A stretch of DNA of 63,005 bases, counting the filler, from Chrysochromulina tobinii (lineage: Eukaryota): the NCBI GenBank assembly GCA_001275005.1. It is 3 parts of 3 records of this genome, joined end to end, with 100 filler letters (N's around TTAATTAATTAA, not from the genome) between each part and the next. Parts side by side here need not be neighbours in the genome. Positions count along the whole stretch, not along the records: positions 59,230 to 63,005 come from JWZX01001426.1; 2 more parts are not named here. One strand, 5' to 3'. This document shows, one piece after another, positions 5,573 to 63,005 of the stretch. The translations under genes were made by a program, and so were the position numbers. The first letter of the stretch is position 1, and each line of letters begins with the position of its first letter. Under the pieces are notes generated by a model that worked only from the letters and a program-made list of their open reading frames with translations, did no database searches and was not told the DNA's origin.

Positions 5573-6196
5573 AAAAAGTTGCTCCGTGGCAGAACTAAGG
5601 GCCCAGAGGGCGCCAAGTTCCAAAGTCGGAAACTAAATTGCACACGCACCTGATTGATGACGGAAGTTGTGTCGTCGCCTGGTCGTCCGCCAAAATTTTG
5701 TTCTGTGTGGAATGGCGCGAATTCTTTCCCGCGAAGTGATCCCGCCAAAAAGGGCTACCGGTCAAAGCGCCAAGTCCACACTCGAAGTCGGCAAAGCGCC
5801 CAAGACCGTGGCGCCAAGTCGTCGGCGCGAACATGCGCCGGAGCGCTCGAAACCAACAGGCAGCCATGGATGCGCCAGACTCCGAGTCGGCGACCGAGTC
5901 GCCGCACACGATCATGTACGCCGCCGTGCCCAGCGTCCCGCTCGAGCGACCCTCTGCTGCCTCCACATTGCTGCGTCTGGCCTGCCTTTCCTCAAAGGCC
6001 CGAATACGCTCACCGCGTTTGCCCCGACCGCGCCGCGCTCGACGTCCAGGGCGCCAAACTTTTTGTCCGGTGCTTTCGACGATCAGCCGTCCCCGTATGT
6101 GCCCCCTCTCGAACCTTGATTTCGCCCGCCCAGCCCTATCCCATGCATTGGCATCGGTGCCGATGACGCGTCCGCGCCTCACCTGGCCTATTCAAA

Positions 6197-9100
6197 ATGT
6201 TGTCCAGGATCGGAACGACCAAGCTCGACACGTTGACCATGCCCTCCCGGAACGGCCTGAAGCGTTCACTGCCCAGCCAGTCGGCCGATCTGACCCTCCA
6301 AGCTGGCTCGGAGCTCCAAAGTGTGCGTGAGGCCAACCAGCCCAAGCAACCCAAGCAGCAGCGCAAGCCTCGCGACCGCAAGCAGGCAGGCAAGAGTGAC
6401 CCCGGCGAGCCCGACGACGACGCGCTCGTGATCCCGGCCGCTGCCTCGGCCCCGACTGGTTCCGCTGGCCTGCCGACCGCCGCCACCACTCCGCATCCCG
6501 CCGCGGGCGCGGCTGACCTCGAGATGGCCGTGGCGGCGATGAGCGACGCCAACGCGGCGGGCCTCATCGGCGGGGGCGATGAGGACGGGCTGAAGACGGA
6601 CAACATCGAGGGGCGCAAGGGCGCGTGGGATGTCGAGGAGGACGCCATGCTCATCTCGCTCGTGCAGGAGCTGGGTGCGAAGCGATGGTCCCTCATCGCC
6701 GCGCGCATGCCCGGACGCATTGGCAAGCAGGTGCGTGCGGACTTTCGTGCCCGTTGCTATGAGGCGGTTCCGAGCCCGCGAGCGCTCGTGGCATTCGGCT
6801 TGATCCCCTTGAGGCCTCGTGACCTGACGGTCCACCGCCTCTCACCTCCTCGTCCCCTCCTTTCCCCCCTCACCCCCCTCTTGTCACGACCCGCTTCGCA
6901 GTGCCGCGAGCGCTGGCACAACCACCTCAACCCCTCGATCTGCAAGGAGGCGTGGTCGGCGGAGGAGGATGAGATCATTCTGCGCGCGCACCGCCTCCTC
7001 GGCAACCGCTGGGCCGAGATTGCCAAGCTCCTGCCCGGGCGAACTGACAATTCGATCAAGGTGCGTTGGCCAATTTGGTTTTTTGAGTTCCCCCCACCTC
7101 GGTGGCGCTGCACGCCATGGCTGCACGCCATGGCTCGGCACCAAGCGTCGCGCGCGCGCGCGCCTGGTGGCCTGTTCGCATGGGCCTCTTACCTTGCCCC
7201 CCTCCTGGCCGCCCTCCGGCCCTTGCGCCCCCACCGGATCCTCTCCCCCCTCGCCGACGACCTCAACCCCTCCGTCCCGGTCTCACCTCGCACAACCTCC
7301 TCGCTTGCCGTGGCAGAACCATTGGAACTCGTCGGTGAAGCGCAAGGCGGAGGCGCGCGGGCATGCCGACGGGCCCGCGTCTCACGAGAGCCTCATGAGC
7401 CTCGGAGTGGGCGCTGACTGCAGCGCGGATGATCAGCACCTGCTCGATGTGCTTCGAGGGCTGCCCGCAAAGTCTTTCTCGGCGGGTCTGCTCGTGTCGC
7501 CCCTGAAGCTCGGCGAGCACGCCGACTCGCGCAAGGCGGCGCGGCGCTCCGCCGAACCCGAGGGGAGCGCTCGCCTCTTTATAGCCCGAGGGGAGCGCTC
7601 CCCCGAAGGGAGCCCAGGAGGCCTCTTCCTAGAGTACGACGCCGCGAGCGCGAGCCTGGACGACGAGCTGCTCCAGCAACTGCTCGACAAGAGCCAGAGC
7701 GGCGCGACGGCCGATCGATCGCGGCCGGCCAGTATGGGCACCGATCCGTCCAAGACGCTGCAGCGTGCCTTCGAGTCCGCGTGCGCCTCGCCGCCCACCC
7801 CCACCTCCGGCCCGCGCCCCGCCGTCGGCCGCTCGCCCCTCGGGGGCAGCGGCCTGGTGCCTAGGAGCCCGCGCTCGCGCTACGTGGACGCGGACTCACT
7901 CGCGGCAGAGATGCTCATGTCGCCCACCTCGGAGCAATTGGCAAGCGCCATCATGGCGAGCGCCATGGGCGGCCTCGGCCTCTCGCCCCATTATTCCGTG
8001 CGCGGCACGCGCTCCGCGGGCGCGAGCGGCGCGGGCGCGGGCGCGAGCACCTCGCGCGAGTCGACCGACGGGGGCGCCGGGAATGGGCGCCGACCGCGCA
8101 GACGGTACTGTGGCGCCCTCCTCGCCGCTCGCGAGCCGCCGTCGCACGAGCATCAGCGTCCTCCGAAGCATGGTCTGCTCACCCGCGGCTGACGCGCTCC
8201 TGGAGCTGGCGTGCTCCCCCGACCGCGTGGGCGCCTCGGCCTTTGCATCGGCGCTCCGGACCTCGGAGCTCGCCAGCGCGCCCAAAGGCAGCGGCGGCAG
8301 GGGCGGCTCGCTCCTCGACGGCATGCGCCTAGGCAGCGACGATTCCGGCGTCGAGCGCTCCGTGTCGCGCCGCATGAGCGGCCGCATGAGTGACCTCGCC
8401 ATGGGCAGCTTCGCCCCGAAACGGTCGCGCACCGATGACAGCTCGCGCCTTCACAGCGGCGACGAGGCGGACTCGCGCTCGCCCAACGTGGCGCCCAACG
8501 TGGACTCTCGCTCGCCGCGCGGCGGGCACCCGGGTAGCGCAAGCGGTGGCTCGCGCGCCAACGCCGCCTCTCTGCTCGCCGCTCGCGATGCCAACCATCG
8601 CCAGCTCAAGGCGGCGGCCGCCGCGGCCGCCGCAGCGGCCGCCGTCACGGCCGCGGTCGACGGGCGCGACGGCGGCTTCTATGCGAAGACGTCGCCGGTG
8701 GGCTCGCTGCCGCGGCCGAGCGATGCGTCGCCCACCTCTCGCGTGCTCCTCCTCTCGCCGGGCGGCTTCTGTGCCAAGACGCCCACACCCTCCGGGACCA
8801 CCGTCCCCACCAAGCTGTTCGCGGATACGGCCGCGCAGGCGCTCGCGGTGCAGGCAGCGGCGCAGGCGGCGGCGGCGGCTGTAGCAGGGGGCGCTGCGGC
8901 GCAGGCTTCGATGATGGCGGCGGGTGCGGCAGCAGCCGCGGCAGCAGCCGCGGCAGCGGCCGCCGCGGCGGCCGCAGCGGACGCGCGCGGACTCAAGCTG
9001 ATCAAGCTGGGCGAGGGCGCGGGCGCTCCGGGCGCCCCGGCGGTCGTCACCTCGCTAGCGTCTCACGTGACCCCAGTAGGCAAGGAGGGCGAGGACGGCG

Positions 9101-9828
9101 AGGGCGAGCTGCCCGGCAGTCCGCCGTCGCCGCCGCCCGTGCCGCCGCCGCTCACCATCGAGCAGCAGCTGCATGCCATCAACCGCAAGATCAACGTCGT
9201 CCCTCTGCCAGGCGAGCTCGCACGGCGCCAACGCGCAGCCGCCGCCATAGCAGCTGAGCGCGAAGCAGCTGAGAGGGAGGCGGAAGGCTCAGCCGATTCC
9301 GACCCTGGCACGAGCACGAAGCCGCGCGGCACTGCCGCTCGAGGGGCCCAGGCTGGTCGCGGGCGTGGGCGTGGGCGCGGCACGCGCGGCGGCAGCGGCC
9401 TGCTGAACTCCTCTTCGGCGGCGGCACTGCTGCTCGGCAAACGGCCTGAACGCGAAGGCGACGAGTCGCACTTTGACGAGGGACAGTTGTCCGAGCTCTT
9501 TAGCTGGGACGGGCTCTCGAGTGATGATCCTCTCGGGCTCCTGTACCTAGAGCCCGGCGCCATTGTGGGCCATCCTGAGGGCGGCATGCGGCGCATCGCA
9601 TCGCCCAACAGCTCCGCCGCGGCTGTCGCTGCGTCCGCGTCCGCCGCACGAGCTCGCCCGCCTGCCTCGCCGCGCGCTGCGGCGGTGGCTCGGCTTGGGG
9701 AGCTTGCGATGCTCTGCGGCGAGGATCCGGACGACCTGCTTGCCGAGGGCAACGCCTCTTCAAACACGGCGCGCGCGACGACGACGCCGCAGGCAGCTGC
9801 GACAGGCACTGGCTCGGCGGGCGCGTGA
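6197..9828 (+). CDS. R2R3-MYB transcription factor, 2 introns, apparent frameshift at the G-run 8070-8074
   Basis: [73 protein letters not shown] is restored by GT-AG introns 6731-6901 and 7061-7316. The exact start is uncertain. Confidence 0.9.
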
Positions 9829-10552
9829 GCAGCATGCGGCGCGGCGACACGTCGAGAACGCACGTTCGCAGCGATACACGCGTGCGGGCGTGCGCCACTC
9901 CTGAGTCACTCACGAGTCAGGATGGAAGCACGATACATTCGCACCTATGACCATGACAACAGCGGGCGACGACGAGAGGAAACTCGTGGGCAGGGCAGGC
10001 GCGTGGCCGCATGGCGGCGTGTTCTCCGTGCGTCAACAGGAGCGTGCAGCGGGGGGGCAGGACGAATCGAGAGGCCGAGACGGGCACACGTCGCGACAGC
10101 ATGGGAGGCGTCCGGGTGAGACGTTGTCGTGGGCGCTCGCCAGGGCGCGCGGGGGGTGGACGGGAACCGAGGGGTGGGACCGCACTGTGTGGGATTCAGG
10201 GCAGGGAAGTCACCGGGAGGAAACTCAAGCACCACCGCGCCGGAAGGGGGTGGGCTGTGCGCTTCAAAGGTTGGAGCGCACCTACGAGTAGTGCACACCT
10301 CCGGCACTCTGCCGTGCATATCGGTACACTCCCGCCCGTGCTGAGTGGTCGGTGTGTCGACACGATAGGACAATTCTGTCGGACCGACCCCAGGCCAGCA
10401 CCCACGCGCAGTTTACACATTATGCGCGTGACTGCTTTTGGGCACTCTCGTCTGCTGAGGCGTGAGGGGGAGGTGATGTGCAATGGCAAGGGCTCGCGCC
10501 GTTAAACTCACACCGCACACCGCACATACAGCGCACGTCAGCAGCCGCCGAG

Positions 10553-11491
10553 TCACGGCACCATTCGCGCTCGCACGGCCTCCGACAGCCGAGCGTTCGC
10601 CTCGCAGACCTGCAGGCCGAGTTGCGCAGCTCGACGCACGACCCACCCGTTGAGCTCCTCGATCTCGGTACGCCTGCCCGCGCGCACGTCCATGCACATC
10701 GATGAGTAGTTCTGAGCGTTGTCGCGAGCACACGCATGCACGAAGCCCAGGAGCTCGTCGGCCGACGGCGCACGACCCTCGGTCATCGCTGAGGCGAGCA
10801 GCGCCAGCTCGTCGCACACAGCTCGCGCGGTGGCGATGCCCTCCGGTCTGGCGAGTACCACGCCATTCTGGACGTCCCATAATGCGGTGAGGGGATTGAG
10901 AACTGCATTCGCGGCGAGCTTCAGCCAGAGCCGCCGCTCCGTTTGCTCGCGCGTCTCCACGATGGCAGCGCCGAGCGTTCCGCCGCCAGCGATGAGCGCG
11001 AGCTCCTCGGAGATCGGCTGCCCACGCGCCAAGCACCCCAACCAAGTACTGCCAAGGCCAGCGTGATGGACGTCGCGGCGCGCTCGTGACCATGCACCGT
11101 GCGTCGTCGTTGCTATCAAAGGAGAATCCACGCTGTCGGCGATGGCCTCCGACACAGCCAATGCACCGTTGCACAAGAGGATGATGGTCGCGTCCGCGGC
11201 AAGCCGTGGCTTGACTTCGCGGATGGCGTCGGCGACGGAAAATGCCTTCACCGAAATGATCAGCGTTTGGAATTCTGTGTCGGCATTGTCTACGGCCTCG
11301 CACGCTACAAAATCATGGCGTGCTTCTTCGTCCGAAGCATTGGCCTCAGTTACGCGCACAGCACATCGTCGCCCTGATGATGCAGCATCGGCTGCCCGCA
11401 GCAGCAGGGTGGGCTCTGCCTTGCGCAGTCCGTACGCCCAGAGAGTGCCGAGCGCGCCTGATCCGAGGATGTGGATTTTGCGTTTTGCCAT
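10553..11491 (-). CDS. panE: 2-dehydropantoate 2-reductase (ketopantoate reductase, PanE/ApbA)
   Basis: IHILGSGALG Rossmann motif, SVKAF, LLCNG, WLKLAANAVLNPLTAL and NYSSMCMDVRAGRRTEIEELNG. Confidence 0.93.
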   Translation of the reverse strand: MAKRKIHILGSGALGTLWAYGLRKAEPTLLLRAADAASSGRRCAVRVTEANASDEEARHDFVACEAVDNADTEFQTLIISVKAFSVADAIREVKPRLAADATIILLCNGALAVSEAIADSVDSPLIATTTHGAWSRARRDVHHAGLGSTWLGCLARGQPISEELALIAGGGTLGAAIVETREQTERRLWLKLAANAVLNPLTALWDVQNGVVLARPEGIATARAVCDELALLASAMTEGRAPSADELLGFVHACARDNAQNYSSMCMDVRAGRRTEIEELNGWVVRRAAQLGLQVCEANARLSEAVRARMVP

Positions 11492-11509
11492 GCGATAGAC
11501 CGTGAAGCG

Positions 11510-11512
11510 ACA

Positions 11513-11543
<31 letters not shown>

Positions 11544-11570
11544 GCGCACGCACGCACGCACGCACGCACG
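11510..11570. repeat. (GCAC)n microsatellite just upstream of panE
   Basis: Tandem cacgcacgcacg... visible directly. Confidence 0.9.
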
Positions 11571-11793
11571 CTCGTGCACTCTGGAACCGAGAGTGTCGGG
11601 AGAGAGCCGGCCCGTGTGAGCATAGTGTGAACGTGTGTGTGAATGTGAAGGTGAACGTTTATGTGTTAACAAACACTTAACTGTGCGACCGAGCACACGG
11701 GGGAACCAACAACAAGATCGGTGGATCATTAACTAATAGTCTTTTACGGTGCTGGTGCGTAACACTCAACTTTGCATCCTTTAGTACGCTACG

Positions 11794-13281
11794 CTACACA
11801 CTGGCGCGGATAAAGCCGTTGGGATCGAGGTCGTCCACGTAGGCCCAGATGTTTTTCGATGCCCAGGAGCTCTGAATGTATCGCTCCTCGGACGACAGCT
11901 TAGGCCGCGGCCCGTAGCCCGGCTGCCGCCACCATGTAATGACGCGCAGCGCGCGCAGCAGTGCACGCCATGGGAGCGTGCACGTTGTAGCGTAGGTGGC
12001 CGTCTGGATGGTGATGGGTGGGTGTGATGGGTGGCAGAGCTCGGGGGAGCCCATGGCGAGGATCATGTGGTAGATCTTTGGCGTGGGCGCGAGCTTCAAG
12101 ATGTTGCGGAAATTGGAGTCGGGCAATGCTCCGCCGAAGCCGTACGGTCGCACTTCGATCACGGTGGAGCGGCGGCGCATGAAGAATGCGTGCGTTAGTC
12201 CCGCGCCGTGCATCCCCACGAGGACGTCGGCGGCGCGCACACGCCGCAGGTCCTCTGCGAGGCCCGCCTCACCAAATTCGTGAGGGGTGCACTCGAGCTT
12301 GACCCCGGGCTCGAGGGGGTGGCGCTGCTGCTCCTTACTGAGGCGGATGTACTCGTGGCGCCGCGCAAAGTCCTCACACTGCTCAAGCAGGCTGTCCGCG
12401 TTGGCCAACCAGCGCCCCGAGATGCCCTTGCCCACGCGCCGTCCGAAGAGCACGCGGAGGAGGTGCCGCCGCCGACCAGTGCCGTCCGGGTCAGTGATGG
12501 TGGCAAGCGCTTCGCCCGCCTCGTCGCCAGCAACGTCTGTGATCGCCGAGGCCGTGGCCGCTGCCGCAAAGGATGCGGCGTAGTCATGCCGTGAAAGCAC
12601 GCGGGCGGCGAGCTTCTGTGCCAAGCTCCAGGCGTCGAGCGTCGACGGCTGCCGGTCGAAAATCGAGCGGAGGTTGCAGTAACGGACGTGCGTAAAGCAC
12701 TGCGGCATGCACGGCGTCGTCGAGAATGTGCCGCCGCCGCAGGCCGGCGCCAGCTCATGCATGAAGGTGACGGGAGACACGTGCTCAACGAGGGCGCGCA
12801 ACCAGCCAGGCGTGTGGCAGGAGGTGTTCAAGTTGGAGCGGCAGCCTGCGTGCATGTGCTTGCGCATGACGTCCAAGATCAGCTGGGTCGCACGATTAGG
12901 GGCGATGAGGCCGTTCTGCTCGAGCTCCATGAGTGGCACGACTGTGCTCGAGAATGTGTCTGCGTAATTGAGCGACCCAACGGGCACGAAGGCGATCGGC
13001 GGCGCACACGAAGTATGCCGCATCCTGAGCGCCCCAAGATCGTTCGGTAGCTCGGGATGGCTTTCGGCGTTGAGCTTGTCCAATCGCAGGATCTGGTGTG
13101 AGTTCCAGGGCACCCTCGCTGACGCCTTGAGCAGCGTCCATGAGCCACCACGCTGCGGCCGGTGGTGAATGGTCTCATTCACGATGCACACGTCGGTCAG
13201 CAGCTGGCAGCGTGTCGAGTTGCACGGGCGCGCGCTGCACACGTCGGCGGGTGGAGAGCAGGACGGCGCGGGCTGAGACAT
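11794..13281 (-). CDS. Glycosyltransferase family 61 protein
   Basis: VRAADVLVGMHGAGLTHAFFMRRRSTVIEVRPY is the GT61 signature. Confidence 0.88.
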   Translation of the reverse strand: MSQPAPSCSPPADVCSARPCNSTRCQLLTDVCIVNETIHHRPQRGGSWTLLKASARVPWNSHQILRLDKLNAESHPELPNDLGALRMRHTSCAPPIAFVPVGSLNYADTFSSTVVPLMELEQNGLIAPNRATQLILDVMRKHMHAGCRSNLNTSCHTPGWLRALVEHVSPVTFMHELAPACGGGTFSTTPCMPQCFTHVRYCNLRSIFDRQPSTLDAWSLAQKLAARVLSRHDYAASFAAAATASAITDVAGDEAGEALATITDPDGTGRRRHLLRVLFGRRVGKGISGRWLANADSLLEQCEDFARRHEYIRLSKEQQRHPLEPGVKLECTPHEFGEAGLAEDLRRVRAADVLVGMHGAGLTHAFFMRRRSTVIEVRPYGFGGALPDSNFRNILKLAPTPKIYHMILAMGSPELCHPSHPPITIQTATYATTCTLPWRALLRALRVITWWRQPGYGPRPKLSSEERYIQSSWASKNIWAYVDDLDPNGFIRASV

Positions 13282-50549: not shown

Positions 50550-50668
50550 CTCAGCTCGGCGCCAGTCCGAGCCCTCCTCCTCCCACGTGCTCAGCTCGGC
50601 GCCAGTCCGAGCCCTCCTCCTCCCACGTGCTCAGCTCGGCGCCAGTCCGAGCCCTCCTCCTCCCACGT
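50550..50668. repeat. 40-nt tandem repeat x3 spanning the stop of the Agenet gene
   Basis: tcagctcggcgccagtccgagccctcctcctcccacgtg(c) occurs three times. Confidence 0.9.
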
Positions 50669-52846
50669 GAACCAGTCAAGCCACTCGTCGGAGCCATCAG
50701 GGAGCACGATGCGTGCCTGGAACATGCCGTCGACGAGCATCACGACCACCTGCGACGCGATCCAGCTTGGAGGACTCTCCTCCTTGACAGCCACCTCCAC
50801 TTCGATCCAGTCGCCCTCTCGAGGCCAGACCCACCCCGCGGGCGGCCGAGGCCGTGCAGGCGGCTGCGGCTCGGCAGCCTTCTGCTTCTTGGCTGTCGTT
50901 GTCTCTCCCGTGATCGCCCCTCCTGCCGCCCTCGCCACATCGCGCCCCTCGGCGGTCAGGCTGTACTTTGCGCCCTCCTGAGTCCAGAGCGGCACCGCAA
51001 AGTTCTTCTCCTTACCGAGAACGGTCACCACGTCAGAGCGCTTCCACTCTCGCACCCTAGCAACCCGTGTGAAAAGATCGTCGCGATCTTCCACCCCAGC
51101 GCACAGCGCGCTGAAGATGTCACGCCGCAGAGAGCCTTCCCGTGGAAGGGCCGCCGCGTCGTCGTCCCCCCGCGTCCGCTTGGCCGCCTTGGACTCCTTG
51201 GCCTTCTCGGCCTCTCTCGCGGTGGCAGCTGCGACCTTTGCGGCCTTCTCGGCCGCCTTGGCCGCCTTAGCCTCCGCCTTGGCCGCCGCCTCCGCCGCCG
51301 CCAGCTCGGCCGCCGCAAGGAGCTCCTCCTCGTCCACCGCGAGCTCCTCCTCGTCCCCCTCTCCGCCCAATTGATAGGACGTCTCGCCTACCTTGCACTT
51401 GAACCCGAAGGGCGCGAGCGCGAGCCAGTTCGTATTGTCGACGAGCACGAGCTTCGGGCGCAGCTTCGCGGCGCCCACTCGCACCGCGATCTCGCTGTAG
51501 ATCTCGCTGTAGACCTCGTACGTGACGATCGGCATCGTCTTGCTCTTGGCATGCCGATCAAGGACGGTCACATCCCACCAGCCGTCATTGTGCCACAGCT
51601 CGCAGGCGACGCCGCGCCTGAGCCGGTTCGCGAAGCCAGTGACCTTGGGAGGCACAGGGCGCACCCACGTGGCCGCGAGGCCTTCTTCGACCAGCGGCTG
51701 CCCAGCGTCGTCAAGGAGCTCATCGTAGCGCACGCTCAGTTTCGTCAAGGAGCTCGCACGCTCGCGAGCTGCGACGGAGATCTCGCGAGCTGCGGCGGAG
51801 ATCGCTTCGGACGCCTTCGCGGCCGCGGGGGACTCTTGTGACGCGGGCGCATCGGCGCTCGGCCGACTGGATGGGATCACAGGCTCGAGCGTCGTATCGG
51901 GCACTGGCTCGGCCTCCGCGAGCGTCGTATCGAGCACTGGCTCGGCCTCCGCGAGCGTTGTATCGGGCGCCCTCACGGTCGCCGTGTCGGTCGAGGGGGC
52001 CGAGGCGGAGGCCGCCCCACCGCTCACGCGCCGCGAGCGTTTCGAGGGAGAGAGCGACTCGCAGTGCGGTGCCTCGGCCATCGCCGCCTCGCTCCCCAAT
52101 CCAGCTTTGCTACCGGTAACAGTGCCCCCCTCTTCCCCCTCGTCCCCCTCCACAGTGTCGACCGAGACGACGGTCGCCGTGTAGCGCGATCCGTGCAGGC
52201 CGTCATCGTGCATGAGGACCTCGACGCGGGCGCCCTGGTGGAGCCACGCAGGCCTCGCCGACGGTGCGTCGGGGCTCTCGAGACTCGCGAGACCCCCATC
52301 CGAGACCCCCACCGACGACGAGAACAAGTACTGCTGAAAGAGGATGAGCTTGCCGATGGGGTGGTTGAGGTGCCAGCCGCCCTTGTCGGCGCCATTGCCG
52401 CGGGACACGCCAAACTTCGAGGCCGCCTCGTCTTTGAGCGCGACGAGATCGTCCGCGATCGATACGGCGCGGCCCTCAAACGCCAGGCCGTAGCCATGCA
52501 AGTACACGCCTCGGCCGCTTGCAAGCTCCTCAACGCGCTTCATGGTCGTGTCGGCGTTCAGCTGGGAGACCTGGCCACGCAGCCACACCTCGAACCGCTC
52601 CATCCACTGGTGCGCACGCGACAGCGCCGCGCGCTGCGCTTCGGTGAGCCGCTCGGGCTCTGCCTTTTGCTTCTTTGCTGCATTCTGCTTCATTGAGGCC
52701 GCTGAAGCGCTTGCCTGCTTGGTGCTCTTCGGGGCAAACCGCATCTGCTCCGCCTCGGTTTCCAAGCCCAACGCGACGAGCATGCGCTTGTTCTCGGCGA
52801 TTTTCTTCAGGCGCTCCAGCTCATAATCTGACAAGTCCATAAGCAT
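50591..52846 (-). CDS. Chromatin protein with Agenet/Tudor-like domains
   Basis: LSDYELERLKKIAENKRML N-terminal motif. GARVEVLMHDDGLHGSRYTATVV..VRYDEL..VRPVPP..CELWHNDGWW is a tandem Agenet pattern, and there is a C-terminal Tudor-like EGDWIEVEV. Confidence 0.75.
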   Translation of the reverse strand: MLMDLSDYELERLKKIAENKRMLVALGLETEAEQMRFAPKSTKQASASAASMKQNAAKKQKAEPERLTEAQRAALSRAHQWMERFEVWLRGQVSQLNADTTMKRVEELASGRGVYLHGYGLAFEGRAVSIADDLVALKDEAASKFGVSRGNGADKGGWHLNHPIGKLILFQQYLFSSSVGVSDGGLASLESPDAPSARPAWLHQGARVEVLMHDDGLHGSRYTATVVSVDTVEGDEGEEGGTVTGSKAGLGSEAAMAEAPHCESLSPSKRSRRVSGGAASASAPSTDTATVRAPDTTLAEAEPVLDTTLAEAEPVPDTTLEPVIPSSRPSADAPASQESPAAAKASEAISAAAREISVAARERASSLTKLSVRYDELLDDAGQPLVEEGLAATWVRPVPPKVTGFANRLRRGVACELWHNDGWWDVTVLDRHAKSKTMPIVTYEVYSEIYSEIAVRVGAAKLRPKLVLVDNTNWLALAPFGFKCKVGETSYQLGGEGDEEELAVDEEELLAAAELAAAEAAAKAEAKAAKAAEKAAKVAAATAREAEKAKESKAAKRTRGDDDAAALPREGSLRRDIFSALCAGVEDRDDLFTRVARVREWKRSDVVTVLGKEKNFAVPLWTQEGAKYSLTAEGRDVARAAGGAITGETTTAKKQKAAEPQPPARPRPPAGWVWPREGDWIEVEVAVKEESPPSWIASQVVVMLVDGMFQARIVLPDGSDEWLDWFTWEEEGSDWRRAEHVGGGGLGLAPS

Positions 52847-53119
52847 TCCGGAAGGTGTGGCCCGCTTTCTTTTGCCGTTGGAGGGCGATCGAAGCTTTTT
52901 CGCGGGCCTCTCTTTCACATCTCTAAAGTCAGCTCAAAGATGTTTTTTTAACGGTGCTTATCCAGAGCTTAAAGGTAGTTTCTAAACTACCCATAAACTA
53001 CGGTCGGTACCTTGTGTGTCGATTCAACTGACCCTTTCTCAAACTACCTAAGATGAGCCTGCACGTTCAGTCTAATCTTCCTTCTCAAAAGAAGAAGCTA
53101 GGAAATAGTGATAGAGGTC

Positions 53120-56100
53120 TCAGCTGATCTGCCCGAGCGCGCCCAGGAGCACGCGCGTGAACTCGCCGTAGCTCACGCGCTCATGCGTGAGCCGGCCGAG
53201 GGAGGCAAGCAGCGCGTTCACCTCCGCGTCGCTCCGATGCAAGCCGAGGCTCAGGAGTACCAGCTCGATCTCGGCACTCGAGATCGAGTCGGTCGAACTA
53301 TCCGCGAAGAGCTCAAAGGCGGCGCGCGCCTCGCCCGAGAGATTCGCCGAGATATTGCCCGGGATCAGAGCCCCCGTTCCGGCGAGGTTCGTCACTGCGG
53401 CGTGCGCGGTCGCGGGGACGCCATCAGTGCTGGCGAGGACGCCATCGGTGCTGGCGAGGACGCCATCAGTGCTGGCGAGGACGCCATCGGTGCTGGCGAG
53501 GACGCCATCGGTGCTGGCGAGGACGCCATCGGTGCTGGCGAGGACGCCATCAGTGCTGGCGAGGACGCCATCAGTGCTGGCGAGGACGCCATCGGTGCTG
53601 GCGAGGACGCCATCGGTGCTGGCGAGGACGCCATCAGTGCTGGCGAGGACGCCATCAGTGCTGGCGAGGACGCCATCGGTGCTGGCGAGGACGGCACAGA
53701 GGCGGCTGAGTGTCTCCGAGCTCACGATGACCTCCGCCAAGGGCTCTGCTTCGGAACTTGAGGCGCCGCCGATTGTACCAGCAGCGGGGAAACCACCAGT
53801 GGGGAAACCACCAGTGGGGAAACCACCAGTGGGGAAACCACCAGTGGGGAAACCACCAGTGGGGAAACCACCAGTGGGGAAACCACCAGTGGGATAGCCG
53901 TCTGTGGGGAAACCGTTTGGAGGGCGAGCAGCGAGGCCGAGGGCGGCCAGCAGGGGCTTCAGCTGGCTAATGGGGGGGCTCATTAGGCCGAGAGTGGCCT
54001 GGATGACGTGTGGAACGTCCGCCACTGGGACACCGGCGCAGCTGAAGCCGCCACCGAAGCCCCTGTTCACACCGAAGCCCCTGTTCACACCGAAGCCCCT
54101 GTTCACACCGAAGCCCCTGGCGCCGCTGCCGCCATTGGACACCAGATTCGCCAGAGCGACGGCTGCGTAAGCCTTGGCTTGAGCGTCGCCGTCGCGAGCC
54201 AGCGCCGCGAGCGCCTCGATGCCACCCGCCGCCGCGATGGCCTCCAGGTGAGTAGACTTGCCGTGTGAAAGGTACGCGAGCGCCGCGGCTGCGTACGCCC
54301 TCCCTTGCGCGTCGCCCTCGCCAGACAGCGCCGTGGTGAGCGTCTCTATGCCGCCTGCCGCCACAATCGCCGGATGGTGGGCCTGCGCGCACGCCAGGCT
54401 CGCCAGCGCGCCGGCCGCGTTGACCCTCCCTTGAGCATCGCCATTTCGAGCGAGCACCACCAGCGTCTCGATGCCGCCTGCCGCCGCGATCGCCTCCCGA
54501 AAGGCATCATCGGTCGCCAGGTTGATCAACGCTCCAGCGGCGTACGCTTGCCCTTGGGGCTCACCGTGGCGAGCCAGCGCTACCAGCGCCTCAATCCCGC
54601 CCGCCGCTGCAATCGCCGTCCGGTTCGCCTCGTCGAGCGCGAGGTTCGTCAAAGCCCCACCGCTGTTCGAGGCGCCCTGCGCGTTGGCGCCGTCGCACGC
54701 GAGCGTGACGAGCGCCTCGATGGCGCCTGCCGCCACGATGACCTGACGGTTCGCCTGCACGCACGCCAGGCTGCCCAGCGCGCCAGCCGCGTTGGATTTG
54801 CCTTCCGCGTCGCCGTCACGAGCGAGCTCGACGAGCGCCTCGATGCCGCCCGCCGCACCGATCGCTTCCCGAAGGGCATCCTCCTGTGCCAAGTTGAGCA
54901 GCGCCCCAGCGGCATTCGTCTTGCAGAGGGTGTCGCCTTCCAAATTGGGGAGATCCGGTTGCCTAATTAGGAGCGCCACGAGTGCCTCGATGCCGCCCGC
55001 CGACGCGATCGCGGAGCGACCCTCACCTGATGAAGGAGGCAATCAGCACGCACTCAGAGAGGCACGCAGCATGCAATCAGGCCGCCGCAATTGCGGAGCG
55101 ACCCTCACCATCGAGGGCCTGATGAAAGAGGCAATCAGCATGCAATCGCGGGAGCGACCCTCACCATCGAGGGCCTGATGAAAGAGGCAATCAGCATGCA
55201 CTCGCGGGAGCGACCCTCACCATCAAGGGCCTGATGAAAGAGGCAATCAGCATGCAATCGCGGGAGCGACCCTCACCATCGAGGGCCAGAGTCGCCAATG
55301 CGTGCGCCGCCCTCGCCTGACCCTCCACGTCGCCCCCTCGAGTGAGCGCGACGAGGCCAGAGGCCACCGCAGAGGCCGTGCCGGCGTCGAGGCCGTCGGC
55401 GGAGGCCAGGGCTGAGGGGGAGAGCGCTCGGGACGGCGCTGAGGTGGGGAGCGACGGCCATTCAAAGCGCCGTCCCGAGCGCTGGCCTCTGGCAGAGGTG
55501 GAGGTGGAGGTGGAGAGCGACCTCTGCCAGCCCTGCCGCGCCAGATTAGGATTGTCAGACAGAGTTTCCATATTAGGATTGTCAGAATTAGTTGCCAGAT
55601 TAGGATCGGTAAGCCTTCGCCTCGATCGAACCAACAACATGCTTGTCATCGCCTCAAGCTCTTCGCTGGCGCGTTGGGCGCCGTCAGGACTAGCTCTGCC
55701 GTCACCTCCGGCGCCATCGGAAGGAGAGCTCGCCTCAAAGGCGCGCATGGCGAGCTCCAATCGAGCCACAGCCGCGGGCGGAAGCGGACGCGCACACGCG
55801 AGCGCCGTGCGCGCCGTAATGAGCGCATCGATCTCCGAGTCGGCATGCGGGGGCGGTGGCAGCGGCGGCGCGGCGCACAGCTGCAAGAAGTGCGAAAAGG
55901 AGAGCAGCGCGGCGGGAGGAGCGGTTGCGGCGGCGCTAGCGCTGCTGCCGACAACCACGGCGGCGGTCTCTAAGGGGCTCGCGTCGTGATGGGCGGTCTC
56001 AAAGGGGCCCGCGTCGTGATGGGCGGTCTCAAAGGGGCCCGCGTCGTGATGGGCGGTCTCAAAGGGGCTCGCGTCGTGATGGGCGAGGGCCGCCGCATGC

Positions 56101-59100
56101 CGCTGCGCGTGGGCGAGCACGCGGCTCCACTCTGCATGCGGCAGGTGACGAATCTCTAAAGCTCCGAAGACGAGATCGAGCTCCGAAGGCCGCACGTACC
56201 CCTCGCGCGCGCCGTCGTGGGCGCCGTCGAAGAGGGCGAACGCGGTGTGCAGCGCCGCGAGCGGCGCCGTGCCGAGCGGCGCACACAGCGTTTCGGCGAG
56301 GACCGCGAGGGGCGCGCCGTCGTGGCGCTTCGTCACTCGCTTCGTCACTCGCGTCGTCGTGGCGGCAAGGCCGAGGAAGTCAGGCGAAGGCACGGGCGCT
56401 GTGGTGGCGCTCGGGGCGGCGCTCGGGGCGGCGCTCGAGGCGGCGCTCGGGGCGGCGCTCGGAGCGGCGCTGTGAATGGAGGGGGCAAGCACGTCCGCCG
56501 CCTCGGCTGCCGCGGCGGACATCTCATCCCATAGCAGCGCCGTCCCGAGCGCCATCTCATCCCATCGCGGCGCACCCTTGCCTGCGTCTGCGCCTGTGCC
56601 TGTGCCTGTGCCTGTGCCTTTGCCGCCTCCTTCGCCGCCGCCAGAGGCCACCTCGGCGCCCAACTCGGCGCCCAACTCGGCGCCCACCTCGGCGCCCACC
56701 TCGGCGCCCATCCCTGCGCCCACCTCGGCGCCCATCCCGGCGCCCAGCGTCTCGGCGCGCTTGGCTGCAGCGTACGGGCGCACCATGTGATAGAGGAGGA
56801 GCCCGACCAAATTAGGAAAGGGCACGCACTCGTACGCGCGCAGCGCCGTCTCGAGCGCCGCGCGGCTCGCCGCCGTCAGGTAGCCCGCCCCGAAGGCGCC
56901 TAGGAAGAGCTCGAGCGCCGTCGTGGGCATCACGCCCCCGCCGCGGAGCTCGCCAGTGACGACATCGAGGCTGTACAAAGGGGGGGGCGCGTGCGGCGCC
57001 GTCCCGAGCGCCACAACCGGCGCGTGCAGCGCCTGCGCGGAGGCGGCGCCGAAGAGGGCGAAGGCATCGTGGATGAGGGCGACGAGGGTGAGGAGAGCGG
57101 GTGGCGGCGGAGCAGGCAGCAAGAGGATCACCGCCTCAAGAGGCAGCGCTGGTCTGCTCGGGTGGAGCGGGGGAACGCCGGCGTCGGTGGCGACGGGCGG
57201 CGGGAGGCGCGATGCCGTCGAGATCGCAATCTGGGCCAATGAGGTGCCGAGCTCGCGATCTCGACGCGAGCTCGCAATCTGGGCCAATGGGATGCGATGG
57301 ATCGCGAGAGCGACGCCGGCGCTCCCCCCGCCCGGTGACGTGGACGGCACTCGAAACGGACGGAGATTGAGCGAGATCGTGCAGCTCCGACGCTCCTTTG
57401 ACGACACTGGCGGTTCGCCCATCTCGGCGCGCGCGCGCGCGCGCGCCGTGCTGAGCAGCGCGCGCTGCGCCGCCGCCTCCTCTTGCGCCTTGGCCGCGAG
57501 GTACCTGATGAGGGAGGCAATCGGACTGATGAGGGAGGCAATCGGAGGGGTCTGTCGAGGGACTGCTCAGAGGGCAATCTCGCTGATCTCGCTGAGTAGA
57601 GGGTTCATCAAGGGTTCATCAAGAGGTCATCAATTGCTCATCAAGGAGTCATCAATGGGTCATCAATGAGTCAGTAAGGGGCCATCAAGGCGTCAATAAG
57701 GGGTCATCAACGGGGCATCAAGGGTGCATAAAGGGTGCATCAGACGTACTTTGCATTCTCGCGCCGGAGCGAGTCTTCGCGCGCGAGGAGCTCTCGCAGC
57801 CACACCTGATGAGGCCAGCAATCAGTCGCAATCAGCATGCACTCAGTCGCAATCAGCATGCAATCGCGCGCGAGGAGCTCTCGCAGCCACACCTGATGAG
57901 GCAAGCAATCAGTCGCAATCAGCATGCACTCAGTCGCACTCAGCATGCAATCGCGCGCGAGGAGCTCTCGCAGCCACACCTCGCGGCGGAAGTGTTCGTG
58001 ACGGCCTGATGAGGCTCGCAATCAGTCGCAATCAGTCGCAATCAGCCACACCTCGCGCCGGAAGTGTTCGTGACGGACCACCTCGGCCTCGTGCTCGGCA
58101 CGGCGCGCCGCCGCCTTCGCCTCCTCCTCCGCATCGCGCAAGGCGGCTGGTTGGACGGCTTGGTCGGCGCTCGGGGCGGCGCTGTGAATGGAGGGGGCGA
58201 GCACGGCTGGTTGGAGGGCTTGGTCGGCGTCCTGTGCCGCCCACGCGCGCGCGCAGGCGTAACGTGCCATCGAGGCCGCGCGTCGCTCCTGATGAGGGAC
58301 GCAATCACGCGGATGAGAAACGCAATCACGCTGATGAGGATCGCAATCACGCGGATGAGGAACGCAATCAAGCTGATGAGGAACGCAATCAGTGCATGCA
58401 ATTCGACGCACCTCTTCTTGTCGTTCCCGCTCGGCACGCGCCGTGGCGGCGGCCTCCTCCACCTGATGAGGCAAGCAATCAGTCGCAATCAGCATGCAAT
58501 CAGCATGCACTCCGCATGCACTCCGCATGCAATCAGCGCTCATCCACCTGCCGGCGCATCTCGCGACTCGACGCCTGATGAGGCCAGCAGTCATTCGCAA
58601 TCAGTCGCAATCAGTCGCAATCAGCGCTCATCACCTGCCGGCGCATCTCGCGACTCGACGCCTCTGCCGCAGCCGCCGCCTCGTGCCGCGCGCTGTCTTG
58701 GGCGGGCGAGGCGGCCGTTACGCTTCGTTGGGTTTCGAGGACGAGCACGCTGGCGCCGTCGCGGGCGGCCGGTCTCGTACCGCCCACGACGGCGCCTGCG
58801 CCCGCGAAGGAGGTGGCCGCTTCGTCCACGTATGACGAGGCCGGTGGCGGTGGCGCCCGCGACGGCGCGGGCTCGTGGTGCACCAGCAGCTGTGCAAAGG
58901 GGACCATCGCTGCGAGCGCCGCCTCGGTCGCCTCCTTGGCGAGCGCGTGCCCGAGACGGCGCTCGAGCGCCGCGGCACGCTCGACGGTGGCGACGGGTAG
59001 TTGGGCGGAGTCGACGGGTAGCGAGACGAAGCCACGCCGCTGGCCGCCCGTGGGGGAAAGGGGGGAGAAAGGGGGAGGAGGCGGGGGAAGCGGGGGAGGC

Positions 59101-59129: not shown

Positions 59130-59229
59130 NNNNNNNNNNNNNNNNNNNNNNNNNNNNNNNNNNNNNNNNNNNNTTAATTAATTAANNNNNNNNNNNNNNN
59201 NNNNNNNNNNNNNNNNNNNNNNNNNNNNN
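59130..59229. other. Artificial contig spacer (N-run / TTAATTAATTAA / N-run)
   Basis: Same 100-nt spacer as at 28055. Confidence 0.98.
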
Positions 59230-59317
59230 TCTCCTGCCGACGAGAGGACGAGAGGATGAACGCTCGCGGAGCGTGTCGAAGTTTTCCACGTGTCGAAGTT
59301 CCCTCGAACGCTTCATA

Positions 59318-59905
59318 CTTCGTTTGTGAGACGATTTGTTCATGGACTTTTATTTGTGAGACGATGGAACTCATGGTTTCGGTTGTGAGACGATTTAGTT
59401 GCGTTTGAGAGACGATAGTTGGTCGGTTGCGTTTGTGAGACGTTCTCATTCTTACTGTTACAAGTCGAACCGCATCGTCTCACAACATCGTCTCACAACC
59501 GTCAGTTCGTCGAACTCCATCGTCTCACAAATGCAACTACATCGTCTCACAAACGCAACTAAATCGTCTCACAAACGCAAGTTCGTCGAACCGCATCGTC
59601 TCACAACATCGTCTCACAGCCGTCAGTTCGTCGAACTGCATCGTCTCACAAACGCAACTAAATCGTCTCACAAACGCAAGTTGTATCGTCTCACAAACGA
59701 AAGTTCAACATCGTCTCACAAATGCAAGTTGCATCATCTCACAAACGCAACTTCGTCGAACTGCATCGTCTCACAAACGAAAGTTCGAACTGCATCGTCT
59801 CACAAAAATCGTCTCTCAAACGGAAGTTCGTCGAACTGCATCGTCTCACAAACGCAACTTGATGCATCGTCTCACAAACGCAAGTTCATATCGTCTCACA
59901 AACGC
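59318..59905. repeat. Bidirectional array of the 11-nt motif ATCGTCTCACA (5 reverse copies, then about 18 forward copies)
   Basis: TGTGAGACGAT-type copies at 59325-59445 and ATCGTCTCACA copies at 59475-59900, with short AT-rich spacers. Confidence 0.9.
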
Positions 59906-60469
59906 TATAGTCGTCGAACTGTGTTGCACAATCGCTAGAACTGTGTTGCGAAGGTCGAGGGGAGGTCGACCGTGTGGTCAGATGACCGGCGGGGTGGCTC
60001 GAGTGGGGGTTAAGCGGGGGTATAGGGCGAGAGATGGGGGATGGCGTGGGCACGCGCCTTCATGTCGCCCAGGGCACTCATTTGGCGTTCCAGAGGCCGC
60101 GGTGATGTCGTCAGACTTTCTCCGAAGGTCTTCCACGGACAACGCACTGTGTTGTGGCCTCAATGTTGAACCGCTCTTCTTTCGCTCAGAAGAGCACACC
60201 ACATCAAGCGAGCCGCCTTTCTGGGAGTACATAGGCCACTGCCCCCCCTGAGCACAGTCGACCCACTCTTGCACTCTCGTGCAAGGGAGCCTTGCCATCC
60301 GAAGATGACTTGGCCCAACCGCGACCACCATGGGATCACCATGGAGGCTCGCTTCAGGCCAAGAGCCGAGGCGGGCTGGACCTGGGGAAGTACCCCCCCC
60401 TCATGACCTCCGGTTCGAGCTCGGTGAGGGTAGGCAGACCCGTCTCCTGAGTCACCCCTCACACCTGCA

Positions 60470-62272
60470 TTATCGACGTTCCGCAGGACCTCTTGCCCCT
60501 GTGTTGCGTTTCGCCGCCCTCGCCTCACGTGCTTCCACGGCCTCTCGTTCCCTCTTGAGCTTCTCGACCACGGGAATTGCAGCCAGGACAGTCTTGCGCG
60601 CCAAGTCCGCGTATTGTTGCGGGTCACCCTCAGCAGGGGTTGACGAGTTCTTGAGATAAAAAGAAGGGACACGCAGCGACGGGGGTTGCGGTTGGGGCGG
60701 GGGCTTGGGCACAGGTGGCGGCGGCGACGGTTCGGAAGGGTCTGCCCATTCCGAGAGTCCTTCAGCGACGAGCAGAGGCTCGCCACCCGCATCCAAGAAG
60801 ACCTTATTGAGCGCCCGGCACGCGTGGCAGCGCACTGCAAACTCGTGCACCTCCTCGCTCAGTGGCACGCCAACCTCATTGTTTGACCTGCATGAAGCGC
60901 ATCTCATCAGCCAGTACGCAACTGCCCTGCCCCGACTGTGCGTGCCTATCACGGAAGCCGGCACAGCGTCGCTCGACGAAGAAGCCGCTGCTTCTCCAGA
61001 GTTTGACGCCGGCGGTGTCGGCAGCAGTGAGGGCACTTCATGGTTTTCTTCTTCGGCTACGTTCCGGCGCCTCATCCACGCACGAGCGCGAGCTCGTAAG
61101 CGTTCGTCCAGGTATTTTGATACGACCTTGGCCTGTCTCTCGGCACTTTCCCTAGACATGCGATTCACGAATCCTTCGATCATGCGCAGGTTGTAGGAGA
61201 CCACATGCAAGCCTTCAACCCTCCGACATGGCGCCGCCTTGGTCAGCGCGTCACCTTCGAGCTGTTCCAGTAGGACCGTGCCGTGCAAATGCCTCTGATA
61301 CTGGCAACTTAGCACGCAGATACAGTCACTGTGCATCACCGGAATCGACACACCGCGCCCTCCCTTGGCGCCTTCGAAAATTGCAAAATTGCGCCATTGA
61401 CCGGGGTGAGACTCGTGCCCACCGAGGAACATGATGGTGCCGCCATAGAGTCCGCCACCGTCCATTTTATCAATGTGTAGATCGGCCGCTGAAGCCTCCG
61501 GGAGGTCGTCCGAACAGTGTCCCCTCACCACCACCTGCTGTGAGGGAAACGTAAATCCGCCCGGAGGTGCAGACGGGTATTGGCATACCTGCGTCCACAA
61601 CTCTTGGTCGCTCTTCGCTCCGTCGGTAACACACCAGGACTTCATGTCCGGGAATACTGACGTCATGCACTTGGCAACATGTCCATTCAATGATCTCAGT
61701 GTAGGCTCGACGCTATCGCTTCTTCCAGCCGGAGCGCGTGTAAATGGGATGTTGGTAGAAGCGCCGTCCAGCATTAAGGACTCACGTCGTCTTCCGGGCA
61801 GTATCCCGTGTCCAAGGCTGATGTATTGGCCAGCGGCTGGCTGGATTGTGGTAGTATTCTTATCAACCTCTTGCTCCATTGCCCACGCACGCAGCTCCTC
61901 CACTAACTTCCGAGTCGACCCTTCTGGAAGATTGCTCAACTTGTCAACTGTGGTGGGTAGCATCCATGCCACTCGTGCCACAGTCACACCTTCTTTTGAA
62001 GTTACGTTTACGCCATGCATCACGTCGTCACTCAACACAGGTAAACTCAGCTCGTCTAAAACGAGTTCGCTTTGCGTGTGCCTCAAAATTGGGTTCCCAA
62101 TCGAACCTGTCGACGCGTGACCAGGATGCGGATGATGACTCAGCCACTCAATCACTTGACCATCCAATTGCAAACTGCCGCTTGCACGTAGCTGAACGCC
62201 CTCACTACTGATCACGTGATCCTTGACGCTCACAGTTACAGAGCAACCAGCACCACGTGATGGGGCCGATAG
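60470..62272 (-). CDS. TET/JBP-like 2OG-Fe(II) dioxygenase domain plus C4 zinc ribbon; no nearby ATG, in frame with the upstream OTU ORF
   Basis: LHIDKMD (HxD, His about 61476), GVSIPVMHSDCICVLSCQYQRHLHGT (distal His about 61284) and LHVVSY, then CASC-x17-CHAC. Confidence 0.6.
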   Translation of the reverse strand, partial: LSAPSRGAGCSVTVSVKDHVISSEGVQLRASGSLQLDGQVIEWLSHHPHPGHASTGSIGNPILRHTQSELVLDELSLPVLSDDVMHGVNVTSKEGVTVARVAWMLPTTVDKLSNLPEGSTRKLVEELRAWAMEQEVDKNTTTIQPAAGQYISLGHGILPGRRRESLMLDGASTNIPFTRAPAGRSDSVEPTLRSLNGHVAKCMTSVFPDMKSWCVTDGAKSDQELWTQVCQYPSAPPGGFTFPSQQVVVRGHCSDDLPEASAADLHIDKMDGGGLYGGTIMFLGGHESHPGQWRNFAIFEGAKGGRGVSIPVMHSDCICVLSCQYQRHLHGTVLLEQLEGDALTKAAPCRRVEGLHVVSYNLRMIEGFVNRMSRESAERQAKVVSKYLDERLRARARAWMRRRNVAEEENHEVPSLLPTPPASNSGEAAASSSSDAVPASVIGTHSRGRAVAYWLMRCASCRSNNEVGVPLSEEVHEFAVRCHACRALNKVFLDAGGEPLLVAEGLSEWADPSEPSPPPPVPKPPPQPQPPSLRVPSFYLKNSSTPAEGDPQQYADLARKTVLAAIPVVEKLKREREAVEAREARAAKRNTGARGPAERR

Positions 62273-63004
62273 TCAGGAATCGAAAAATCCGAGGAAGTTC
62301 ATAATGTCGAGGCTCAAACGCATGGGGCGTCGTGGCAAGTATCCTGCGAAGTGTCCAGTCCCATCATATTCCACGACAACGAACTTGAGGTTTGCCGCAA
62401 CCAAACCATCAATAGTCGTCTTCAGGGCATTCATGGAAACTCTCTTCTGGTTGCCTTTCAAACCCCCAGGGAACAAGATGAAGCTCTTCGGCGTGGTCAA
62501 ATTCAGCCAGACGATTTGAATTCCAAGCATGTTCGACAGCACACCATAGGTGTCCACTCCGCCCCCCCAGGTACCACTCCGTGATGCGGAGGCGGCTTCT
62601 AGGCTTGAGATTTCTTGAATGAGCACATCCTTGGCCATCACCGTCATGTCCCACTTCGTCGTTGTCGCATAGCGTTTCATCTTTTGAATCACCATAGCTG
62701 ATACTTTGAAGTCTCGGGACGTTGGGGAATGCTCGCCTTGGGATTTTGAAGTAATCTTGCACTTCCTCGCGTGTTCCATGAGGCCCACGCCTGCAAGGAC
62801 AGCGTACAACCAGCAGCTTCCATTCCCCTTGACAGTGACGCGCTCTCCGAGGTAATCCAACTTGGAGATCAACGACACAGATTCCTTGATATTATCCGCT
62901 CGTGTGGACGACGCCGGCGTGGCACCGGCGTTCGGGTCTGCCAATAACATCCGGTACTCAGGATCCTTTTCTTGCCAGGTCTTCATGTGCTCTGCTGACC
63001 AGAT
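62273..63004 (-). CDS. OTU-like cysteine protease; frame open to the window edge
   Basis: VTVKGNGSCWLYAV (Cys about 62814), GTWGGGVD and YDGTGHF (His about 62352). Confidence 0.75.
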   Translation of the reverse strand: MWSAEHMKTWQEKDPEYRMLLADPNAGATPASSTRADNIKESVSLISKLDYLGERVTVKGNGSCWLYAVLAGVGLMEHARKCKITSKSQGEHSPTSRDFKVSAMVIQKMKRYATTTKWDMTVMAKDVLIQEISSLEAASASRSGTWGGGVDTYGVLSNMLGIQIVWLNLTTPKSFILFPGGLKGNQKRVSMNALKTTIDGLVAANLKFVVVEYDGTGHFAGYLPRRPMRLSLDIMNFLGFFDS

Positions 63005-63005
63005 T

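Follow-up and report, generated by a model that had tools for sequence, protein, structure and literature searches.

The window, i.e., the whole stretch of 63,005 nucleotides of Chrysochromulina tobinii DNA that was analysed, holds the 3′ end of a Mutator-like (MULE) DNA transposon, and the reading frame under study (ORF2) is not a separate gene. Our overall reading, held with somewhat more confidence than doubt, is that the first reading frame of the element (ORF1) runs through a conserved TGA-CTA into a TET-type dioxygenase, and that a minor readthrough fusion would alter the element's own 5-methylcytosine.

The last 3.8 kb of the window, which follows a gap at about positions 59130–59229, had a GC content of 54–59%, in a window of 65% GC that is eukaryote-like. 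ORF2 comprises 600 codons from stop to stop (60470–62272, minus strand) and, as a candidate readthrough extension, encodes a TET/JBP-like dioxygenase, a zinc ribbon, a Pro-rich linker, and a basic helical tail before ending in TAA. Its first ATG is codon 85, within the folded domain. The earlier note on this DNA had overlooked this position of the first ATG as well as the frame that ORF2 shares, across one TGA, with an OTU-like sequence.

A Mutator-Like Element with a Long First Reading Frame

Eighteen related loci were obtained from metagenome contigs, and two of these contigs (L002 and L007) hold the whole element, bounded by 143-bp inverted ends that are 87% identical. The L007 element spans positions 1434–13028 (~11.6 kb), with the ends GAGAATAC...GTATTCTC. 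Three different flanks were found next to right ends of the element and two next to left ends, and near-identical copies with differing flanks were observed, which bears out the earlier proposal that ORF2 is carried on a mobile element. In the window, the right terminal inverted repeat (repeat family D13, about 140 bp in full copies) occupies positions 59315–59446 on the minus strand; the sequence matches the other copies as far as 59315, and its last four bases differ from their TCTC end. Subterminal arrays of CpG-containing repeats lie inside both ends of full copies, and the window has the right-hand one, composed of 18 copies of a 16-nt unit with the core ATCGTCTCACAAA (repeat family D3; 59474–59905, unstranded). 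These subterminal repeats are likely candidates for transposase-binding sites. Elements of the MULE/MuDR type generate target-site duplications of 8–11 bp; none was found in the two contigs with both ends (2/2). When a repeat present in many copies is assembled, flanking sequences from separate copies can be joined. An Rfam scan of positions 59200–63005 gave a single hit attributable to chance, MIR807 (E 1.6), which lay on the terminal repeats.

In the three families with a complete ORF1, this frame was 2,278–2,996 codons long. The order of domains in the related loci was MULE transposase, SWIM, CCHC knuckle, OTU, GNAT-like, and a second OTU, and the transposase motifs DAIDG, TDGG, CxxH, and NNFAE (DDE-type) were present in three families together with the SWIM-like finger and the CCHC knuckle. 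Pfam matched the OTU domains with E values of 2.5e-5 to 0.023 and the GNAT-like domain with an E value of only 0.18. The 3′ end of ORF1 is located at positions 62276–63004 of the window (minus strand), encodes the second OTU-like protease domain (GNGSC, GHFAG), and runs off the window end; this is the adjoining deubiquitinase frame that had been described before. A direct MULE match for ORF1 was found neither in Pfam nor in NCBIfam, and the AlphaFold model of the transposase, built from 3 sequences, was unusable (pLDDT 36.9). In the ESM Atlas, the ORF1 core fell into MULE/SWIM clusters (0.94, with 178 shared features), the 10 best matches out of 10 belonging to one family/clan. DNA transposons of fungi that carry TET/JBP genes were reportedly described by Iyer et al. 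in 2014, and the earlier note had cited KDZ-type transposons of fungi as carriers of such genes and had proposed a look for viral genes. The Atlas points instead to a MULE/Mutator-like carrier, no KDZ family appeared among the Pfam or Atlas matches listed, and viral contigs held no relatives of ORF2, so that a viral origin is not supported. A transposase, which the earlier note had also proposed to look for, is encoded upstream in the related loci and is MULE-like.

A Conserved In-Frame Stop between ORF1 and ORF2

ORF2 is in frame with the upstream OTU-like ORF1, and the sole separator is one TGA (62273–62275); this TGA, followed in frame by CTA-T, constitutes a candidate programmed readthrough site (62269–62275, minus strand). 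Among the 18 related loci, two fall short of the junction and L016 has lost it, leaving 15 junction loci, which belong to four families whose TET domains are 46–68% identical; several of these loci may share one culture. All 15 carried a single in-frame TGA-C, with TGACTAT in nine, TGACTAG in five, and TGACAAC (TGA-CAA-CTA) in one. As the four families are related, this common context does not represent four independent events. When 30 nt on either side were compared without gaps, only C at +4 and A at +6 were common to the four families besides the TGA, and TGA-CTA accounted for 0.13–0.23% of the stop triplets in this DNA. Readthrough is documented at both UGA-CUA(G) and CARYYA according to the available part of PMC4132726, and TGA-CT separates Gag and Pol in retrotransposons of fission yeast (bioRxiv 10.1101/2022.12.06.519325, partial text). 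Taken together with the selection described below, the sequence context makes readthrough at the conserved TGA-CTA likely.

Purifying selection was detected on both sides of the TGA. The position of the first ATG beyond the stop differs among the four families (codon 85, 110, 83, or 32), and the stretch from the TGA to this ATG showed dN/dS values of 0.27–0.41 (6 computable pairs). In the window, about 84 codons preceding the ATG are thus under purifying selection and are folded as part of the domain in the predicted model. It is scarcely credible, given these data, that the TGA arose as an inactivating nonsense mutation or encodes selenocysteine. The distant homologue P0029 speaks for such a reading insofar as its OTU-like His motif is joined to the domain seemingly with no stop at the junction, a weak match (E 0.012 among 153 proteins). 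P0029 also counts in favour of the fusion proposed here. However, the identical stop and context in four families down to 46% identity, together with the purifying selection downstream, largely refute a nonsense mutation, while against selenocysteine the TGA sits in a linker that varies, and the Rfam scan of positions 59200–63005 revealed nothing resembling a SECIS. Reassignment of TGA was also considered as a candidate and was rejected, with 0 TGA against 30–34 TGG codons in three ORF1s.

The other way of obtaining the domain would be to make it separately, from its own short transcript with a non-ATG start or by splicing past the TGA, with the product acting in trans like the fungal cargo. 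This is improbable, even though the core of a splice branch point likewise reads TGAC, an AG is located 4 nt past the stop in L011 and L013, and known transposons carry their TET cargo as separate genes according to the available text of PMC12730594. The frame is kept at 15 of the 15 junctions, and the first AG is situated 44 nt (window) or 56 nt (L017) past the stop, behind protein-conserved residues. For example, the residues T-R-A-G directly after the stop are common to L013 and L017 despite three synonymous changes, and in L017 they precede any AG. Four RNA libraries were inspected, and contigs from two of them crossed the TGA ungapped and unspliced, with 16 and 14 differences that were all located elsewhere; no splice joints were found in the RNA-library contigs at the junction. 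These crossing contigs had a depth of 3–5 and may be DNA. As a DNA control, three RNA libraries were compared with L007 and its host flanks, and the flanks were uncovered except for one 31-nt match, a weak control that neither proves transcription nor ranks the parts of the element, the element being multicopy and the runs having been chosen with this stretch.

We retain readthrough as the preferred origin of the TET-containing product. A search for long fused proteins (1053–3005 aa) found none, a weak search because gene callers stop at TGA. A stem-loop was predicted from about 11 nt past the TGA (62212–62261, minus strand; z −2.77 in the window copy), and its conservation is not established, with one of five folded junctions significant and the others at z +0.68, +0.01, −1.33, and −1.47.

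A Predicted, Divergent TET/JBP-Type Dioxygenase

The TET/JBP-like double-stranded beta-helix domain corresponds to ORF residues 17–400 (61073–62224, minus strand), as delimited by a predicted model and its structural matches. The AlphaFold model of these residues had a pLDDT of 81.5, and Foldseek ranked TET2 first, CMD1 second, and CcTet third. A wide structural search gave a Z score of 15.3 for TET2 (rmsd 3.8, 258 aligned), followed by NgTET1 (12.1), CMD1 (11.4), and CcTet (11.3), with other oxygenases at or below 9.6, and the best named match in a viral structure library was a phage JBP1/TET oxygenase. The TET-type helix of the predicted model thus resembles TET/JBP enzymes more than it does AlkB or prolyl hydroxylases, in agreement with the fold that had been proposed from motifs alone. 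Those motifs were all found again in ORF2. The HID motif comprises residues 266–268 (61477–61469) and forms part of H266-x-D268-x-x-D271 (61460–61477, minus strand), which provides two iron ligands and an Asp at the cytosine-N4-reading position of NgTET1/CMD1. The motif GVSIPV..C...RHLHGT contains H330, the distal iron ligand (61283–61285, minus strand), and the strand LHVVSY ends in Y360 (61195–61193).

Sequence searches returned 18 homologues of ORF2 at E ≤ 1e-90 and relatives in 139 cluster representatives at E ≤ 0.001. For the conservation analysis, 50 sequences were picked among the near-full-length matches (12 near and 38 distant members). R250, H266, D268, and H330 were invariant in 50/50, and D271 and Y360 were each present in 49/50. 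The core of the TET domain showed dN/dS values of 0.09–0.24 (5 computable pairs among 7). With the iron triad and R250 invariant and the core under this selection, ORF2 is not a dead gene, and the domain is a maintained and probably catalytic member of the TET/JBP type; the inactivity suggested earlier is not supported. Databases missed this relationship: Pfam Tet_JBP (PF12851) matched neither ORF2 nor 4 near or 43 distant homologues, and NCBIfam and Pfam name neither the dioxygenase nor the transposase. PDB sequence searches with ORF2, two profiles, and the transposase, OTU, and second-oxygenase portions gave nothing meaningful. In the ESM Atlas, scores for the dioxygenase domain remained below 0.9, and a PF12851 cluster at 0.86 served as a lead only. 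In two distant relatives the protein also carried a SET or PHD domain (E 0.0005 and 0.008).

The C-terminal tail after the TET domain is variable. In the window, and only in its sub-family, it contains a zinc ribbon CxxC..CxxC (C458, C461, C482, and C485; 60818–60901, minus strand), for which the Pfam matches, obtained on P0001, were weak (E 0.07–0.2). Its two CxxC pairs are at 458 and 482. The earlier note had counted a zinc ribbon in a possible anti-silencing module; the ribbon is not a core part, being missing in L011, and in L013, L017, P0011, and P0228 it is replaced by a second HxD..H domain resembling a 2OG-Fe oxygenase.

A Probably Rebuilt Cosubstrate Pocket

Residue equivalences were mapped by the spacings given in the available part of PMC7854593, not by superposition. 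In TET2, R1896, which like R289 of NgTET1 holds the C5 carboxylate of 2-oxoglutarate, is situated six residues before Y1902 (same partial source). The corresponding position of ORF2, 354, holds Gly in the window and Arg in 0/50 of the aligned sequences, in line with the earlier claim of a Gly at the 2-oxoglutarate-binding Arg position. Position 356, four residues before Y360, carries Arg in 32/38 and Lys in 5/38 of the distant members, and the near members have G354 in 12/12 and H356 in 12/12. Whichever register is true, the sub-family of the window is devoid of Arg or Lys on the last core strand, G354-L-H356-V-V-S-Y360 (61193–61213, minus strand). ORF2 belongs to TET/JBP by its fold and iron site and lacks the canonical 2-oxoglutarate-binding Arg.

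This pattern suggests that the cosubstrate site is a rebuilt pocket rather than a dead one. Since 37/38 distant members have Arg or Lys at position 356, presumably facing the same pocket, binding of 2-oxoglutarate is probable for the family, and His may take the place of the basic residue. The remodelled pocket (H356, T332, and Y325) thus probably still holds 2-oxoglutarate, and another cosubstrate is possible. Position 325 is occupied by Tyr in 12/50 rows, and the remaining 38 have Thr, Ser, or Ala there. That readthrough is real and yet the cosubstrate is not 2-oxoglutarate (e.g., ascorbate, like CMD1), with a modification other than 5hmC, 5fC, or 5caC, is unlikely, although it deserves more weight than any other rival considered here. 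It would agree with a last strand devoid of Arg or Lys in both registers (G354 and H356 in 12/12 near members), with Tyr325 in 12/50, and with the precedent of CMD1, in which, according to the available text of PMC7854593, the use of 2-oxoglutarate was lost with the loss of the basic residue for the C5 carboxylate; CMD1 is itself transposon-borne (bioRxiv 10.64898/2026.10.09.758095, seen in part). The basic residue at 356 in 37/38 distant members, read as a sign of 2-oxoglutarate binding, argues against this alternative, as does the greater similarity of the model to TET2 (Z 15.3) compared with CMD1 (Z 11.4).

Regarding recognition of the base, D271 matches the cytosine-N4 reader by the spacing in the portion of PMC7854593 consulted, which also states that an Asp at HxD+3 in CMD1 favours cytosine over thymine. 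Y360 is likely the base-stacking aromatic residue, and the invariant R250 is a candidate, assigned by sequence only, for the base-stacking Arg that binds the C1 carboxylate (R1261/R224). L362 occupies the position at which known TETs carry the His or Arg that reads N3/O2, and as a predicted equivalence it speaks against ORF2 simply reproducing the chemistry of TET enzymes. On the basis of D271 and Y360, which fall at the cytosine-reading and stacking positions, an iron-dependent activity on flipped-out 5mC or C appears likely. A non-catalytic reader of methyl-cytosine, or an enzyme acting on thymine, 6mA, or RNA, would account for the absence of both the Arg for the C5 carboxylate and the residue that reads N3/O2, and CcTet, among the top structural matches, also acts on 6mA (available text of PMC12730594). 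These possibilities are nevertheless very unlikely, as the three iron ligands are all invariant and the Asp at HxD+3 favours cytosine over thymine in CMD1 (PMC7854593, in part).

Proposed Function in the Element

In the mechanism that we propose, most ribosomes would stop at the TGA and yield a transposase-OTU-GNAT-OTU protein, and a few would read through and add the TET domain to the transposase chain. The transposase part would guide this domain to the subterminal repeats with their CpG sites, and oxidation or another modification of 5mC there would counter methylation and silencing of the element DNA. The leaky stop would hold the dose of the enzyme low and limit damage to host methylation. 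For the targeting and dosage part, i.e., transposase guidance to the subterminal repeats and a stop that limits both the enzyme dose and host-methylation damage, the balance of evidence tips slightly in favour. Circumstantial support for methylation pressure on the element comes from transitions between copies, which were enriched 1.4- to 3.7-fold at YpG in 9/9 pairs, these pairs being non-independent and confounded by codon position; against it, CpG was not depleted in the elements (o/e 0.97–0.99). Haptophytes have DNMT5 and DNMT1-like enzymes, as reported in the part of PMC9998398 available.

It is widely proposed that transposons use TET cargo against silencing. How the TET cargo of a transposon finds its own element is an open problem, raised for viral TET in the punuivirus preprint (partial text). 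A readthrough fusion would answer this question, the transposase providing the target and the leaky stop the dose. If true, it would be an instance of recoding in a DNA transposon of the cut-and-paste type, and the chromatin editor would combine a deubiquitinase, an acetyltransferase, and a TET enzyme in one chain. The domain would also add a TET sub-family of at least 139 clusters missed by Pfam, in which the cosubstrate pocket switches naturally between Arg and His, a difference that may yield new base chemistry. The most far-reaching version, in which a DNA transposon hangs a dose-limited, self-targeted chromatin editor on its transposase and the Arg-to-His pocket uses a different cosubstrate to produce an undescribed base modification, is speculative and rather doubtful.

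Comparison with Known Systems

Compared with human TET2 (9hxv, 4nm6), Naegleria NgTET1 (5cg8), and Coprinopsis CcTet (7vpn), ORF2 exhibits the same fold and iron triad, an Asp/Asn at H+5, and an aromatic residue ending the last strand. It differs from them in its 8–15% identity, in the lack of equivalents of R1896/R289 and H1904/H297, and in not being recognised by Pfam Tet_JBP. The CMD1 of Chlamydomonas reinhardtii (PMC7854593, partial text) resembles ORF2 as an algal, mobile-element-borne TET homologue with an HxDxxD motif, and in both there is no basic residue placed for the C5 carboxylate of 2-oxoglutarate. CMD1 retains Arg410 in a turned-away orientation, whereas ORF2 has Gly at that position, and its sequence matched no PDB chain.

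That DNA transposons of fungi carry TET cargo is established (PMC12730594, Kojima 2025, available text), and preprints seen in part, including bioRxiv 10.64898/2026.10.09.758095, report such cargo for transposons of Chlamydomonas, for a giant virus, and for Polinton-like viruses. The fungal TET/JBP transposons, as presented in the accessible text of PMC12730594, share with our element a cut-and-paste carrier, a divergent dioxygenase, and a proposed anti-methylation role, and the best structural matches of ORF2 were TET2, NgTET, CMD1, and CcTET. The carriers named in that text are Dileera, Kyakuja, Zisupton, hAT, Harbinger, IS3EU, EnSpm, ESTA, Plavaka, and Helitron, and not MuDR/MULE. In contrast to the fungal cargo, the dioxygenase described here is in frame with the transposase ORF; within the available text of PMC12730594, the word "fused" is absent and "readthrough" occurs only in the title of a reference.

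Regarding the carrier, MULE/MuDR elements and our element have in common a MULE transposase with SWIM and CCHC motifs and long inverted ends. OTU domains are known in Helentrons (PMC6431247, in part), and a term search of the accessible text of the MULE survey PMC6446971 found no OTU or oxygenase. The VANDAL MULEs of Arabidopsis likewise encode their own anti-silencing protein (summarised in the available portion of PMC12730594); the VANDAL factor is a regulator, whereas here the candidate is an enzyme in a polyprotein with two OTU-like domains and one GNAT-like domain. Regarding the stop codon, Gag-Pol readthrough in the LTR retrotransposons Tj1, Tosmo, and Tcry1 (bioRxiv 10.1101/2022.12.06.519325) and UGA-CUA(G) readthrough in alphaviruses and mammalian genes (PMC4132726), both sources being available in part, resemble our junction in the conserved in-frame TGA followed by CTA and in the low ratio of long product. 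The known cases in these partial sources are retroelements, RNA viruses, and host genes, in contrast to a DNA transposon whose extension is a DNA-modifying enzyme and not a polymerase. A full-text literature search, in which few subscription papers were covered, found no MULE-borne TET and no readthrough or fusion in a DNA transposon. The element probably works like the known TET-carrying transposons, and its new part is the architecture of a MULE polyprotein with probable readthrough into an enzyme.

Organization and state of individual copies

DNA comparison of the 3′ blocks of the window copy, at 60150-60310 and 60309-60711, gave an identity of 95% to the related elements of the L013/L014 family and 88% to the L011 locus, whereas the TET cores of the window and these same families share just 65-69% DNA identity. 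Since the blocks are far more alike than the cores, the 3′ modules seem to have been exchanged among the element families through recombination.

In locus L007, a segment of approximately 730 bp of ORF1 (8896-9624) lies in reversed orientation compared to the window and the lake contigs, and the same was observed in L005; both copies therefore carry a broken ORF1. At the end of the window copy (59230-59314), the inverted repeat is devoid of its terminal TCTC, which could mean an immobile or a variant end.

To the left of the assembly gap, the minus strand carries two host genes, at 50591-52933 and 53120-55042, in which Agenet domains (E 9e-7) as well as armadillo repeats (E 2e-33) were recognized. 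Intron-like stretches at 57589-58629 are made up of repeats of 10-11 nt, GCAATCAGCAT and GGGTCATCAA among them.

Domain variation among families

In L013 (11015-11593), L017 (2970-3500), and the homologous proteins P0011 and P0228, the TET domain continues into a fused second HxD..H 2OG-Fe-oxygenase-like domain instead of the zinc ribbon; searches of Pfam, NCBIfam, and PDB gave no name for this domain. In the window's family, ORF1 (L001, 1526-9781; L002, 1010-9997) bears a WW domain (E 6e-8), together with a weak GDSL/SGNH-like match at its N terminus (E 0.017), whereas the other families show SAP- or DEK_C-like matches in their place. In the distant family members P0143, P0137, and P0048, the fusion partner is a SET domain, a PHD finger, or part of the N-terminal region of the MULE transposase.
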